From Escherichia virus ECH1, in the sequence record MN164484.2: a stretch of DNA of 46,054 bases; one strand, written 5' to 3'. The notes beneath the pieces were generated by a model, which was not told the origin of the DNA, did no database searches, and saw only the letters and a program-made list of their open reading frames with translations. The position numbers and the translations under genes are program-made. Within the stretch, counting starts at the first letter, position 1. Each line of letters opens with the position of its first letter. Positions 12,435 to 19,274 of this stretch are shown here, in pieces.

Positions 12435-13091
12435 ATGGCCCATCTTAGTAATGGAACTCAAGTGTTCGTTGAAGGTTCTCGTGGCGACGCTGTTGCAGTT
12501 ACAGCAATCTCTAACGCAGCAAGCCCTGTTCTAACTGTAGATGACGCATCTGGTATCGCGGCTGGTGATTACCTGCTGTTTACCGCGTCTGCTTCCACCC
12601 TTCTTGCTGACAAGCAGGTTCGAGTTACCTCAGTTACTGGCACGTCAATCACTGTAGAAGGTATCGATACTTCTAATACCACTAAATTCCCGGCTGGTTT
12701 GACTGGTGAAGTGGTTAAGATTCTTTCATGGTTCGAAGTTCCGTGCGTTCAGGACGTATCTACTGACGGCGGCGAGCAGCAGTTCGTTAACTTCCAGTGT
12801 CTTTCTGATGACCGTGAACAGCAGATTCCGACTTATAAATCTGCCGTAACAAACACCTTTACCTTTGCTCACGAGTACACCAACCCGGTTTATCCGGTTC
12901 TGCGTAACTACGATGAGTCTGGCCAGGTTGTTGCGATTCGCCTGTTCGTACCTCGCGCTCAGGAAATGCGCTTGCAGTCCGGCACTATCGCTTTCAACGA
13001 CACGCCAACAATTGGTGTTAACGAAATCGAAACGGTATCTATCGCTGTATCCATTCGTGGTCGCTTGTCCTCCGTGGCAGCTGAAGTTTAA
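12435..13091 (+). CDS. major tail (tube) protein (putative)
   Basis: 218 aa, Thr/Ser/Val-rich; position before the chaperone pair; terminator follows. Confidence 0.6.
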   Translation: MAHLSNGTQVFVEGSRGDAVAVTAISNAASPVLTVDDASGIAAGDYLLFTASASTLLADKQVRVTSVTGTSITVEGIDTSNTTKFPAGLTGEVVKILSWFEVPCVQDVSTDGGEQQFVNFQCLSDDREQQIPTYKSAVTNTFTFAHEYTNPVYPVLRNYDESGQVVAIRLFVPRAQEMRLQSGTIAFNDTPTIGVNEIETVSIAVSIRGRLSSVAAEV

Positions 13092-13099
13092 AACACAAA

Positions 13100-13124
13100 C
13101 CCTCTTCGGAGGGAATTTTTTATT
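13100..13124 (+). terminator. rho-independent terminator (CCCTC-TTCG-GAGGG plus AATTTTTTATT)
   Basis: Hairpin plus T-rich run. Confidence 0.55.
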
Positions 13125-13201: not shown

Positions 13202-13468
13202 ATGAATAGTAAGTTAGAAGTATTATCCGCACTTCGCGGCCCTATTTGTGTAGCTGCGCTGGTTGCCTTTTATGCAGCAGTTCAGATTATCAACCCAACA
13301 AGAGCGGAAACAGCAAACTCTGACGCGGCAAAATACAATTCGGTTTTCTCTGAGCACAAGGCAATCTGCGAGAAGGCTTCTGGTAGCAAGATTGAGCAGG
13401 TTCTGAAGTATGGCAAGGAAATCTGCGTAGATATCGCGCACGACATTGCAAAAGAAAGCACTAAGTAA
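13202..13468 (+). CDS. moron: small secreted/membrane protein (88 aa, four Cys)
   Basis: N-terminal hydrophobic segment ICVAALVAFYAAVQII; own promoter-like cassette; sits between tail tube and chaperone genes. Confidence 0.45.
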   Translation: MNSKLEVLSALRGPICVAALVAFYAAVQIINPTRAETANSDAAKYNSVFSEHKAICEKASGSKIEQVLKYGKEICVDIAHDIAKESTK

Positions 13469-13504: not shown

Positions 13505-13819
13505 ATGGCAAAGTTCAAACTTTCACTAGCGGCACTACCTGACTTTAAACTGCCTGTAAAATTCAAGCTAGCTAACGACCAGGATGTAGAGGTTATGTTC
13601 ACAGTTAAGCACAAGAAAACTTCTGAACTGCAGGAGTTGCTTAACAAGGAAAACCTGAGCACTAAAGAGCTTATTATGGCAATTGCCTCTGATTGGGATT
13701 TAGAGGAAGAGTACAATGAGGAAAACGTTAATGAGTTCTCCGATCTGTTCCCGACTTCAACCGTTGCTTTGACTACTGCTTACATGCAGGCACTGGCGGG
13801 TCAGCGAGTAAAAAACTAA
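13505..13819 (+). CDS. tail assembly chaperone (gpG-like)
   Basis: 104 aa acidic protein just upstream of the tape measure; ends in slippery heptamer A AAA AAC. Confidence 0.65.
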   Translation: MAKFKLSLAALPDFKLPVKFKLANDQDVEVMFTVKHKKTSELQELLNKENLSTKELIMAIASDWDLEEEYNEENVNEFSDLFPTSTVALTTAYMQALAGQRVKN

Positions 13820-14139
13820 AGAGGGCGATGTATCTACAGTACCAGTCAGAGCCAACTGATGCCGAGCTGGAAGCTATTGGGATGCGCCGCTCTGATTACG
13901 AAGATGAAGAGCCCGAGGTTTTACACTTCGACGAGAACATGATGAAGGCTTGGGACATTTATTGTTCAATGGCTACACAATGGAGAGTCGGAGCTAACGG
14001 AGCTACAGGGCTAGATTACAACGTGCTAAATTTCCTCTTTAGAGTGTATAATGTTTCTGAAGAAGAATTGGTGCTCAGCGATTTACGCATCCTTGAAGCT
14101 AAGGCTCTTGAGATGATGGATAACCTGAGAAAAAAATAA
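13505..14139 (+). CDS. tail assembly chaperone G-T fusion via programmed -1 frameshift at 13810-13816
   Basis: Canonical X XXY YYZ heptamer A AAA AAC in the zero frame; the -1 frame is open and in phase with ORF 13828-14139. Confidence 0.6.
13828..14139 (+). CDS. gpT-like chaperone extension ORF (103 aa; may also be translated from its own ATG)
   Basis: ATG with RBS GAGGG; in phase with the -1 frame of the upstream chaperone. Confidence 0.5.
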   Translation: MYLQYQSEPTDAELEAIGMRRSDYEDEEPEVLHFDENMMKAWDIYCSMATQWRVGANGATGLDYNVLNFLFRVYNVSEEELVLSDLRILEAKALEMMDNLRKK

Positions 14140-14160
14140 CCCGCTTCGGCGGGTTTTCTA
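14138..14160 (+). terminator. rho-independent terminator (AACCCGC-TTCG-GCGGGTT plus T-run)
   Basis: Hairpin identical to the one at 9399-9420. Confidence 0.6.
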
Positions 14161-14174
14161 TTATGGAGGCTTAG

Positions 14175-17162
14175 ATGGCAACAAATGAATTAGCCGGAAT
14201 CACACTAGCCGTAGATGTCTCGCAAGTAGACAGGGGCACGCAATCCCTGCAAAAGTTCAGGCAGGCAAACCAGCAAGCCGCTTCCGGAATTAGTGAATTC
14301 GTCAATGCTGAGCAGGTCGCAAAAGACCAAGCCAGAGACACGGCTCGCGCACTGGCTGAACAGCAAGCATCTTTAGCTAAATTGCAAACAGCTATTGACC
14401 CAACTGCGGCAAAGTTCCGTAAGCTGCAAGAGGCTGCTGTAGGTCTGGATAAGGCTTTCGCGGCTGGCGTAGTTCCTGATGAGGAGTTTTTCCGGTTAGG
14501 TGAGGCACTTGAAACTCAGAACGCAAAACTTGCTCGTTCACGTGCTGCGCTAACTGAAGAGGGAAGGGCTGCGGCGCAGGCTGCAAAGGATAAGGCAAAA
14601 GCAAAGGCTGAAGCTGACAGGTTCATTGCATCACTTGAGCGACAGGCTCAAGCGGCAACATTGACGCGTGAGGAGTACTTGAAGTTACAGGCTGCTCAGC
14701 TTGGCGTAAGCTCTCAGGCTGCACCCATCATTGACAGAATCGCCGACGCATCACAGAAGGCAAGCACCCAGTTAATCGCTCAGAGCAAGGCTTTTCAGCG
14801 CTCTGGCTTAAGCGCAGGTCAATACAAGAATGCCATATCTCAACTACCAGCGCAGATTACTGATATTGGCACGTCGCTTGCTGGAGGCATTCCGATTTGG
14901 CTTATTGCAATTCAGCAGGGTGGGCAGATCAAGGATGCATTTGGCGGTATTGGTAACACCTTTAGATTCGCGCTTGCAGCCTTAAACCCATTTAATGTAG
15001 CTGTTGGTGTTTTGGGTGGCGCACTTATTGCTCTTGGTGTTGGTGCAGCTCAGGCTGAAAGTGAATTCAGAGCATTAAACTCCGCAATTGCTTTCTCCAA
15101 CAACTCTACAATCGCATCAATCTCGCAGGTTAGAGAGTTGGTTAGCTCTGTTTCTGATGCAACAGGTGCTACCAGAGGACTTGTGACTAGCATCGCAACA
15201 AGCCTTATTGAGCAAGGGAACCTTACGCTGACGCAGATTGACAAGATTACTAAATCGACCGCAAGATGGGCGCAGTTGACAGGTAAGGATGCGAAGGAGA
15301 TTACTGGTTACTATAACCAGATTGCAAGCGACCCAATCCAGGGTTTAGTTGATTTGGATAAGCGCTTTAACTTCCTCACACAGGGGCAGTTGACGACAAT
15401 CGAAAACCTGAGAAAGACAAAGGGAGAAGTTGAGGCCGTTACTGCTGCGATTGATATTTTCAGCAAGTCTCAGGAAGCCAACCTTAACGACATAGCTGCG
15501 CAGTTAACTCCGCTTGAGCTAGCCTGGAATGATTTCAGAAAGTACATCTCTGATATCTGGGATGCAATTAGTCGTAGAACGGTCGGGGCGCTGAACCTAT
15601 TTGTTGACGTAATCGCCGGAACGATTGAACAGATCAGGGTATTCATTAACCAGGGTGATGTTCTGATTGGTGAATTCGTAATTAGCGCAACTCAGGCATT
15701 GCAGAACATTCCTGGTCTTGATGGCGTTGGTGATGATGTTATCAAGGGGCAGCAGAAGATTATCGATGCCGCCAAGAAGCAAAACCTTGAGCTAGAGAAG
15801 TCTATCAAGGAGCGAGATGCCAGAATCAGAGAGGGAGAGCTTGGTTACGTTACTCGCAGAGAAAATCAGAATACCAATGAGCAGTCAGGTACTGATGAGG
15901 AATTTGCAAAAAGGAAGAAGGCGCTTCAGGATGAGCTTGATGCGATCAAGAAGAACAGGAAAGAAGAAAATAGTAGGGTTAAGGAGCAAAGAGATTTAAC
16001 AATTGGTTATGAATCTGGCGTTCTGGCGCTTCAGGCTCAACTCAAGGTGCTTCAGGAAAACAGGGATATTGGCGCAGTAATAAGCAATGAGCGCAAACAG
16101 TATCTTCAGGAGGAGGCCAAATTCAGGATTCTTGAGCAGAGACAACTTGATGGCTCAATTACCAAAGAGCAAGCAAGACTTCTCATTGAAAAGGATAAAG
16201 TTCTTGAGTTAGCCAGACAGAAGGCTGAGCTAGGTGATCAGATTGTTTTGCAGGAGCGAGCTAATAAGTTAGCTGAAGATAACCGCAAGAAGATTCTTCA
16301 GATTAACAATGAGGCAAGTAACATTGATTTGGGTGCTGGTTTATCATCTCGCGAGCAGCAGAGAGCAAAAGAGATTCAGGCTCTTCAATCCAATCAGGTT
16401 AATGCTGGTGGTTCTGTTGATGATGTTGATTTTCAGCAACTTCTCGAAGCAAGAAAGAAATGCTATGCTCAGGAGGATGCGCATACGTGCAACTGGCTCG
16501 CTGGCGTAACAACAAATCTTGCTACCTGGGCTCAGAGCGCGACGGAATGCACTCAAATTGCTGGAAGTTTCACCACGACAGTCTTTGAAGGTATTACAGA
16601 CCAGATTACAAACCTTGTATCCACTGGTGAGACGAACTTCAGGGATTTTACTGTTAGCATCCTTAAGCAGATTGCTAAGATTGCAACCCAGCTTCTTTTT
16701 GTTAAGGCTATTGAGTCTAGCTTATGTAGCTTCGGTGGTGGTGGCGCTAATGCATTTGGTTCGATTGCATCTGGTTTTGGGTTCGCTACCGGCGGTTACA
16801 CTGGGGATGGTGGGAAGTATCAGCCAGCCGGTACGCTGCATCGTGGAGAGTTTGTATTCACAAAAGAAGCGACAAGCCGAATTGGTGTTAAGAACCTTTA
16901 CGCACTGATGAAAGGTTACGCAAACGGCGGAGCGGTTGGTGGTCCATCTGGTTATTCTGGTGGTGGTTTGGTTTCTGGAGGATCAGATGTTAATGTTAGC
17001 GGTATCACTGTTAACGTTAATGGTGGCGTTGGTAGCGACCCAGAGCAAGCAAAGGCGTTGCAAAACGGCGTTAAGGCCATCGTAGCGGAAGAGATTGCGC
17101 AGTCTTTCCAGCAGGGTGGGCGTGCTTATGCTTACCTTCGCGGATTCAACTACTACCACTAA
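14175..17162 (+). CDS. tail tape measure protein
   Basis: 995 aa, coiled-coil Ala/Gln/Lys-rich, hydrophobic central segments, Gly-rich C-terminus; position after chaperones. Confidence 0.9.
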   Translation: MATNELAGITLAVDVSQVDRGTQSLQKFRQANQQAASGISEFVNAEQVAKDQARDTARALAEQQASLAKLQTAIDPTAAKFRKLQEAAVGLDKAFAAGVVPDEEFFRLGEALETQNAKLARSRAALTEEGRAAAQAAKDKAKAKAEADRFIASLERQAQAATLTREEYLKLQAAQLGVSSQAAPIIDRIADASQKASTQLIAQSKAFQRSGLSAGQYKNAISQLPAQITDIGTSLAGGIPIWLIAIQQGGQIKDAFGGIGNTFRFALAALNPFNVAVGVLGGALIALGVGAAQAESEFRALNSAIAFSNNSTIASISQVRELVSSVSDATGATRGLVTSIATSLIEQGNLTLTQIDKITKSTARWAQLTGKDAKEITGYYNQIASDPIQGLVDLDKRFNFLTQGQLTTIENLRKTKGEVEAVTAAIDIFSKSQEANLNDIAAQLTPLELAWNDFRKYISDIWDAISRRTVGALNLFVDVIAGTIEQIRVFINQGDVLIGEFVISATQALQNIPGLDGVGDDVIKGQQKIIDAAKKQNLELEKSIKERDARIREGELGYVTRRENQNTNEQSGTDEEFAKRKKALQDELDAIKKNRKEENSRVKEQRDLTIGYESGVLALQAQLKVLQENRDIGAVISNERKQYLQEEAKFRILEQRQLDGSITKEQARLLIEKDKVLELARQKAELGDQIVLQERANKLAEDNRKKILQINNEASNIDLGAGLSSREQQRAKEIQALQSNQVNAGGSVDDVDFQQLLEARKKCYAQEDAHTCNWLAGVTTNLATWAQSATECTQIAGSFTTTVFEGITDQITNLVSTGETNFRDFTVSILKQIAKIATQLLFVKAIESSLCSFGGGGANAFGSIASGFGFATGGYTGDGGKYQPAGTLHRGEFVFTKEATSRIGVKNLYALMKGYANGGAVGGPSGYSGGGLVSGGSDVNVSGITVNVNGGVGSDPEQAKALQNGVKAIVAEEIAQSFQQGGRAYAYLRGFNYYH

Positions 17163-18911: not shown

Positions 18912-19274
18912 ATGAAAAAAATGTTCCAAATTAAATTTAACGGATACAAAAAAGACAAAGAAGAGTGCGCTGGTTTGTTTTTCATTGGCCACAATTACCC
19001 CTGCAGTGTTGTTGACTCAAACAGACACTATCAGACGCAGGATGAGAATGGCAATATTGTAAAGTTTAAAAGTATTTTCCGTGATGCTTGTTACGACTTT
19101 TCAAGAATTGATACTCAGAGCAAGGTATTAGACGAGCATGATAACAAGATGAAATATCGAATGAATGGTGTTGATGTCACTAAGTCATTCTTTGATGATA
19201 AGCTACTGGAAGTTGAGATGCTTAAATCAATAGATGTTTCAGTATTTATAGATTTTGAGGTTTATTTTGAATAA
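18912..19274 (+). CDS. moron, paralog of 6039-6370 (120 aa)
   Basis: Own promoter-like cassette and terminator; N-terminus FNGYKK and C-terminus IDFEVYFE match the 6039 gene. Confidence 0.5.
   Translation: MKKMFQIKFNGYKKDKEECAGLFFIGHNYPCSVVDSNRHYQTQDENGNIVKFKSIFRDACYDFSRIDTQSKVLDEHDNKMKYRMNGVDVTKSFFDDKLLEVEMLKSIDVSVFIDFEVYFE

Follow-up and report, generated by a model that had tools for sequence, protein, structure and literature searches.

The genome of Escherichia virus ECH1 (record MN164484.2; the window, that is the whole analysed stretch of 46,054 nucleotides) carries two small tail assembly chaperone ORFs that are most probably expressed as the G and GT proteins of a lambda-type pair. 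A -1 ribosomal frameshift on the slippery heptamer A AAA AAC is predicted to yield, besides the 104-aa G protein, a minor GT fusion of 211 aa, and we give this reading, which rests on sequence comparison, a probability of about 0.87. The feature is already known, since it is annotated in phage OzMSK and described for T1-like phages. The window phage belongs to the Drexlerviridae (T1-like), with Escherichia phage vB_EcoS_ACG-M12 (Braunvirinae, Guelphvirus) as its nearest relative. The two share 94% identity across 2 kb and 97.6% across both ORFs, and a comparison by codon position places the substitutions mostly at third positions. Gene order and protein families both speak for the frameshift reading. 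The tube gene (PF08813) is followed by a small 88-aa ORF, G (PF08748), T (PF08809) and the tape measure gene (PF06791 and PF09718), so that both chaperone ORFs lie between the major tail (tube) and tape measure genes, as in lambda. The features are collected in Table 1.

Table 1. Features of the tail chaperone region, in window coordinates.
Feature	Position	Strand	Support or remark
Tail tube (major tail) protein gene	12435..13091	+	Pfam Phage_tail_3 PF08813, E 1e-68
G-like tail assembly chaperone ORF, zero-frame product, 104 aa, 11.9 kDa	13505..13819	+	Phage_TAC_4 PF08748, E 5.9e-33; phrog_569, phrog_17368
Slippery heptamer A AAA AAC (X XXY YYZ) in G frame	13810..13816	+	Read from sequence
-1 segment to be read after a slip, 107 codons + stop, LKRAMYLQYQ...	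13816..14139	+	DUF1799 PF08809, E 2.6e-16
Four -1 codons CTA AAG AGG GCG (L K R A), slip site to ATG	13816..13827	+	Conserved among 63 junctions
Zero-frame stop TAA, adjoining heptamer; possible 'shifty stop' (inferred)	13817..13819	+	Stop here in 63/63 junctions
SD-like AGAGGG, Lys-Arg codons of fusion frame	13820..13825	+	-6.3 kcal/mol versus anti-SD; 2 nt before ATG 13828
T-like ORF from ATG, 103 aa	13828..14139	+	ATG unique to window phage
Intrinsic-terminator-like hairpin + T run between T and tape measure gene	14138..14155	+	T1 record: terminator at equivalent place
Tape measure protein gene	14175..17162	+	TMP_2 (PF06791), E 3.6e-49; Tape_meas_lam_C (PF09718), E 3.9e-16

The anatomy of the junction is directly visible. 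The zero frame reads CGA GTA AAA AAC TAA at 13805-13819 and the heptamer occupies the last two sense codons of G, exactly as an earlier note on this DNA had described it. That note had also claimed that the -1 frame is open at this point and in phase with the downstream ORF. This is equally correct: the open stretch of the -1 frame runs from 13735 to 14139 and overlaps G by 85 nt, and the downstream ORF, since 13828-13504 = 324 = 3x108, is in the -1 frame with respect to 13505. The family assignments are well above threshold, with 114.2 bits for PF08748 on G (gathering cut-off 21.1) and 60.1 bits for PF08809 on the -1 frame ORF (cut-off 26). From 13735 up to 13828 the -1 frame holds no ATG, GTG, TTG, CTG, ATT or ATA, and the codons for L K R A can therefore be translated by recoding only. 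A -1 slip performed in silico gives a predicted GT fusion of 211 aa and 24.4 kDa with the junction ...AGQRVKN/LKRAMYLQYQ..., in wider context ...ALAGQRVKN/LKRAMYLQYQSEPT..., the slash marking the slip. PHROG 17368 is a 213-position profile of which positions 1-107 match G and positions 113-210 match T. As this profile spans both, a fused protein family is already present in the PHROG library. Searches with the GT fusion gave no match in PDB sequences at E <= 10 and none in a large protein database at E <= 0.001, although relatives are plainly present in GenBank. The latter result may mean that the family is absent from that index or that the query was oddly handled.

Within this one sequence the heptamer is weak evidence (P about 0.1). 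AAAAAAC is not enriched in the window, where it was found 11 times against 15 expected. In-frame X XXY YYZ heptamers number 50 in the 12,774 codons of gene-like ORFs of the window, which corresponds to a chance of about 10% that one falls within the 28-codon overlap. Among these 50 heptamers, the one at the end of G has the longest -1 extension (107 codons; the next has 80). The relatives' conservation of the heptamer, as aligned, far exceeds chance, and it is this comparison that is decisive.

Junctions were taken from 15 annotated phage records, 61 IMG/VR contigs and 6 bacterial or MAG contigs. The IMG/VR and bacterial/MAG sets were found by alignment of the first 89 G residues only, so that their sampling is unbiased by the junction. 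Collection left 63 distinct junction sequences. Such a comparison with related G/T pairs had been proposed in the earlier note as a check, and its outcome is clear: a slippery motif stands at the end of G in 63/63. It directly precedes the stop as N NNA AAC in 56, mostly in the form A AAA AAC TAA (T1, Rtp and TLS-like phages). In the remaining seven it lies one codon before the stop and consists of the tetramer A_AAG only, without a heptamer, these junctions reading A AAG GTC TAA or A AAG CCC TAA. Motif and stop read T TTA AAC TGA in a contig of Pseudomonas luteola and G GGA AAC TGA in a Pseudoxanthomonas MAG, in both of which PF08748 is still found in frame 0 and PF08809 in frame -1. Judging from these sequences, the X base covaries, so that the slippery pattern survives the loss of the homopolymer run. 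Codon -3 (Val or Ala) ends in A in 61 of the 63 junctions, and the two exceptions (T and G) are exactly the T TTA AAC and G GGA AAC junctions. Before an AAC (Asn) codon, Lys is spelled AAA without exception and AAG does not occur; nor is AAT ever used for Asn. At codons -4, -6 and -7 every one of the four bases occurs in third position: Gly -6 appears as GGG (17), GGT (16), GGC (16) or GGA (13), and Arg -4 as CGC, CGA, CGG or CGT.

Past the slip site the conservation is that of a protein. The residues encoded in the -1 frame are L (63/63), K (60/63), R (57/63), A (61/63) and V (60/63), then Y and L, and the codon spelling varies (R is AGG, CGG, CGC or CGA; A uses all four GCN codons). Across the aligned junctions, the L K R A codons are under protein-level selection in the -1 frame, past the stop of G. 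A zero-frame stop ends G in every junction (TAA 58, TGA 5), and it is kept through the -1 Leu codon, which is CTA (58) or CTG (5), never CTT or CTC. Downstream of the motif, every -1 frame stays open for 102-109 codons and codes for a conserved domain that lacks a conserved start; in close relatives the +1 frame closes after 13 codons. The smallest -1 overlap among the relatives is 31 nt, and the shift must therefore fall in the last ten codons of G. Signal and two-frame layout are thus both conserved beyond what the protein sequence demands, as they would be in a lambda-type pair.

These observations also bear on another alternative, namely that G happens to end in Lys-Asn and that the heptamer, a by-product of this ending, plays no part in recoding. 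The chance figures given above for the single sequence would be compatible with it. However, a mere Lys-Asn ending accounts neither for the exclusion of AAG and AAT nor for the preceding codon ending in the matching base, a stop adjoining the heptamer and a long open -1 frame whose conserved domain lacks a conserved start. We regard coincidence as extremely improbable.

Some members of the collection deserve separate mention. The form A AAG GTC TAA, in place of A AAA AAC TAA, is that of Rogunavirinae-type relatives (Rogue1, positions 739-750, and Sf12), and A AAG CCC TAA occurs in one MAG contig. In the Rogunavirinae-type phages the tetramer A_AAG lies one codon earlier, and DUF1799 remains encoded in an open -1 frame. 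To judge from their sequences, the slip in these phages would have to involve a single tRNA, and the product would read K-G-L-K-R and not K-N-L-K-R. Escherichia phage 2725-N35 (MN840485) has only five A in the run at 2895-2905 (GTAAAAACTAA), and its 'tail assembly chaperone' is annotated as a 117-aa protein running into the +1 frame. Either a sequencing error in the homopolymer or a true deletion of 1 nt probably accounts for the five-A run. Three IMG/VR contigs also have disrupted G ORFs. T1-like contigs bearing the module are assigned to Nitratidesulfovibrio liaohensis, a Fibrobacter MAG and a Peptococcaceae MAG, and phages named for Campylobacter and Pseudomonas are near-identical to E. coli Rtp-like phages. 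Such odd host labels likely reflect contamination or mis-binning and not true hosts.

The earlier note had further credited the downstream ORF with its own ATG and RBS. Both elements exist, the ATG at 13828 and AGAGGG before it, but the ATG is unique to the window phage and the SD-like motif is only 2 nt away from it. If they were functional, T could be a separate 103-aa protein only, started at ATG 13828 via AGAGGG or by termination-reinitiation, and the heptamer would have no role. The stop of G lies 8 nt upstream of this ATG, the pairing energy of AGAGGG with the anti-SD is comparable to that of neighbouring genes, and the CPT annotators of OzMSK likewise noted an 'independent RBS'. The relatives, however, make this explanation quite improbable. 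The codon at this position encodes Met in the window phage only; it is GTG in 10 junctions and GTT, GTA or GTC in 50, making Val the residue in 60/63. Expressed as possible starts, ATG or GTG stands there in 11/63 and a non-start codon (GTT, GTA, GTC or GCC) in 52/63. ACG-M12 itself has GTG (Val to Met in the window phage). In other subfamilies the first ATG of the -1 frame comes 18-120 nt downstream, and in T1 it (19309) falls within the DUF1799 match that begins near 19255. A spacing of 2 nt is moreover too short when compared with the 4-14 nt, mostly 4-9, seen in twelve neighbouring genes. The SD-like bases are one synonymous spelling of Lys-Arg (AAG AGG): relatives use AAA CGA or AAA CGC, AGAGGG being replaced by AACGAG or AACGCG, and the Rtp-type phages spell Lys-Arg AAA CGA. 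Finally, the synonymous sites of the heptamer are frozen and the four codons before the ATG are selected as protein in the -1 frame. Across the aligned junctions the ATG route is not conserved, and it cannot account for the selection on these four codons. In the window phage alone, weak initiation or reinitiation may supply some free T as a minor extra, though we find this rather doubtful.

The run of six A at 13810-13815 could also act at the level of transcription. RNA polymerase would stutter on it and add one A, which brings T in frame, and standard translation would then give ...VKKLKRAM.... Efficient slippage by the E. coli enzyme reportedly needs runs of roughly 8-9 or more (Baranov et al. 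2005), however. The distant members with T TTA AAC and G GGA AAC keep X XXY YYZ without a homopolymer, and A AAG GTC of the Rogunavirinae has three A only. These variants exclude transcriptional slippage as the family mechanism, and for the window phage we hold it to be very improbable. The junction peptide would tell the two apart, with ...AGQRVKNLKRAMY (VKNLKR) expected of a ribosomal slip versus ...VKKLKR of a transcriptional one.

Under the favoured reading, a -1 ribosomal frameshift, translation would mostly terminate at the TAA at 13817 and yield the 104-aa G protein. A small minority of ribosomes would slip back one base on A AAA AAC, the tRNA-Lys re-pairing from AAA to AAA and the tRNA-Asn from AAC to the near-cognate AAA, and CUA (Leu) would be read next. 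Slipped ribosomes would continue through CTA AAG AGG GCG ATG... to the stop at 14137-14139, giving GT (...VKN-LKRAMYLQ...). Whether the two tRNAs slip in tandem in the A and P sites or the P-site tRNA slips with the stop waiting in the A site, the product would be the same. On the lambda model, coating of the tape measure protein would fall to G and the G part of GT, and recruitment of the tube protein to the T part (DUF1799); neither G nor GT would be found in virions. That slippage occurs at all is what we infer from the conserved signal and from the selection across the junction, and its low efficiency, its timing and the lambda-like domain roles are inferred likewise. In the literature that could be searched, we found no experiment on, or demonstrated fusion product of, any Drexlerviridae G/GT.

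Several points count against the frameshift reading. The heptamer is absent from 7/63 relatives, and the ATG 8 nt past the stop of G could yield some free T. In addition, the E. coli ribosome tolerates AAC-to-AAA re-pairing poorly (PMC4066793). For this reason A_AAA_AAC is a low-efficiency site in E. coli, far less shift-prone than A_AAA_AAG (PMC5009743, PMC4066793). By analogy with lambda, such a low-efficiency motif fits a low GT:G ratio. The term canonical, which the earlier note had applied to the site, is hence apt for the heptamer pattern but not for its strength or its surroundings: the motif is inefficient and no conserved downstream structure accompanies it in the clade.

Directly after the heptamer no local hairpin was found, as the 64 nt at 13817-13880 fold no better than shuffled sequences (z +0.95). 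Longer folds of 104 and 146 nt in the window reach z -2.0 and -2.5, but their structures are mutually inconsistent and this candidate was rejected. RNAalifold on 12 clade members gave no conserved structure near the slip site. Stimulated -1 frameshift signals combine the heptamer with a 3' hairpin or pseudoknot at a spacing of 5-9 nt; no stable, conserved hairpin of this kind was found in the window clade. T1-type phages (Tunavirinae, Tempevirinae) have an interrupted 12-bp hairpin 6-7 nt past the heptamer, with z from -3.7 to -2.6 (T1 -3.7). In T1 it lies at 19193-19223 (GGCGGUU..UCUG / CAGA AACCGCC) and shares its bases with the codons for RAVYL...KPP. Neither the window clade nor the Rogunavirinae have this hairpin, and it is broken in several lineages. 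Its positions are paired in 81%, with only 2 compensatory cells, and RNAalifold gives no consensus. An upstream stimulator and a second slip site were discarded. An upstream SD stimulator of the dnaX kind would have to be a weak GGCGGG 9 nt upstream, the only one seen by eye, and the third positions of these Ala-Gly codons vary freely. Elsewhere in the 85-nt overlap the only other slip site is the tetramer C_CCG at 13750-13753, where the -1 frame is closed in many relatives.

Besides the slippery motif, the zero-frame stop is the only feature conserved in all 63 junctions. This leads us to a tentative suggestion, which we consider possible but somewhat unlikely, that N NNA AAC with an abutting stop could form a structure-independent 'shifty stop' signal of this chaperone family. 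The non-cognate re-pairing from AAC to AAA would keep the efficiency low and the waiting stop would supply the pause. If true, it would explain the stop at the end of G in 63/63, the use of the rare CTA Leu codon and the lineage-specific occurrence of the hairpin. In the window clade, the abutting stop, rather than RNA structure, may be the sole stimulator.

The surroundings of the pair show some further peculiarities. The records of the window phage, ACG-M12 and SCS31 are all 46,054 bp long, and the divergence of the window from ACG-M12 is uneven. The tube gene differs by 72 substitutions and the compared part of the tape measure gene, its first 1.7 kb, by 97, against only 1 each in G and in the 88-aa ORF; nearly all of these changes are at third positions. 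The idea that the window is an altered copy of ACG-M12 was rejected, as the third-position bias of the differences indicates natural divergence. The uneven distribution suggests, from the sequences compared, mosaic recombination among close relatives. A second terminator-like hairpin with a T run is located at 13100-13121, 3' of the tube gene, the counterpart of the one that follows T (14138-14163 with its T run). The G/T pair is thus flanked on both sides by terminators, and the T1 record annotates terminators at equivalent positions. They may have a role in the stoichiometry of tube, chaperone and tape measure proteins. The 88-aa ORF (13202-13468) between tube and G has no Pfam match, its sole match being phrog_22925 (unknown function). 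It has no counterpart in T1, and its counterparts in Rtp (rtp34) and OzMSK have 129 and 83 aa. To judge from this comparison, its position is that of a variable small insert of the tail module.

Compared with known systems, the closest functional model is lambda. The earlier note's proposal of a lambda G/GT-type chaperone pair is sustained by the gene order, the PF08748/PF08809 families, the conserved in-frame heptamer, the protein conservation across the junction and a joined CDS in OzMSK. As in lambda, two small ORFs stand between the major tail and tape measure genes with the second in the -1 frame, an X XXY YYZ motif lies near the end of the first, and the fusion is predicted to be the minor product. 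In contrast to lambda, where G GGA AAG is followed by five sense codons before the stop of G, the A AAA AAC of the window abuts the stop. The proteins are also smaller, with 104 aa for G and 211 aa for GT versus 140 and 279 aa in lambda. Tail chaperones are highly diverged in sequence. An hhalign comparison of the G-family alignment with lambda gpG detected no sequence homology (probability 0.1%, E 0.63). The G:GT ratio is essential for lambda tail assembly, and the heptamer must therefore be spared from synonymous recoding when such a phage is engineered. The lambda system (Levin et al. 1993; Xu et al. 2004, 2013, 2014) is reviewed in PMC5009743, and its two products are made at about 30:1 (PMC5009743).

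The heptamer itself has parallels in E. coli and elsewhere. The dnaX gene uses -1 tandem slippage on a lysine-rich heptamer, A AAA AAG (PMC5009743). It differs from the window by an efficient AAG A-site codon, where the window has AAC, by an upstream SD-like element and a downstream hairpin, flanking stimulators of which no conserved equivalent was found in the window clade, and by a shift of about 50%. IS1 is nearer in this respect, with the same heptamer, the same host, a low efficiency and an upstream ORF fused to a -1 ORF. The insA-insB' pair is reportedly expressed by a -1 frameshift at A AAA AAC (Sekine and Ohtsubo 1989; Escoubas et al. 1991). The proteins are unrelated, IS1 encoding a transposase and the window phage a chaperone. 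As described in PMC4066793, -1 shifting at the A AAA AAC of IS1 is proven in E. coli, and no stimulator is known for it. The same arrangement of AAAAAAC plus stop appears for gp12/gp13 of Acinetobacter phage Loki (PMC5313236). This phage is of a different lineage and host, and is likened to the window by arrangement, not by protein homology.

The nearest parallels are within the T1-like phages. The OzMSK record (PQ659294) annotates a joined 'tape measure chaperone' CDS at the same feature, and the same frameshift has been described for Stevie (PMC4319613) and U136B (PMC8104045). All three share with the window the protein families, AAAAAAC followed by TAA, and the junction ...QRVKN/LKRAVYLQYQ; they differ in having Val as the fifth codon after the slip, where the window has Met (ATG). 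The record of ACG-M12 has an entry for each of the two ORFs and none for a joined CDS. Its two small proteins would be better described as one chaperone gene from which G (104 aa) and, by a programmed -1 frameshift, GT (211 aa) are made. What the comparison across the family contributes to the knowledge of these systems is modest, namely that AAC is almost always the A-site codon, that a stop always stands at the end of G, that the hairpin is lineage-specific and that the Rogunavirinae have a tetramer, and it leaves the overall G/GT picture unaltered.
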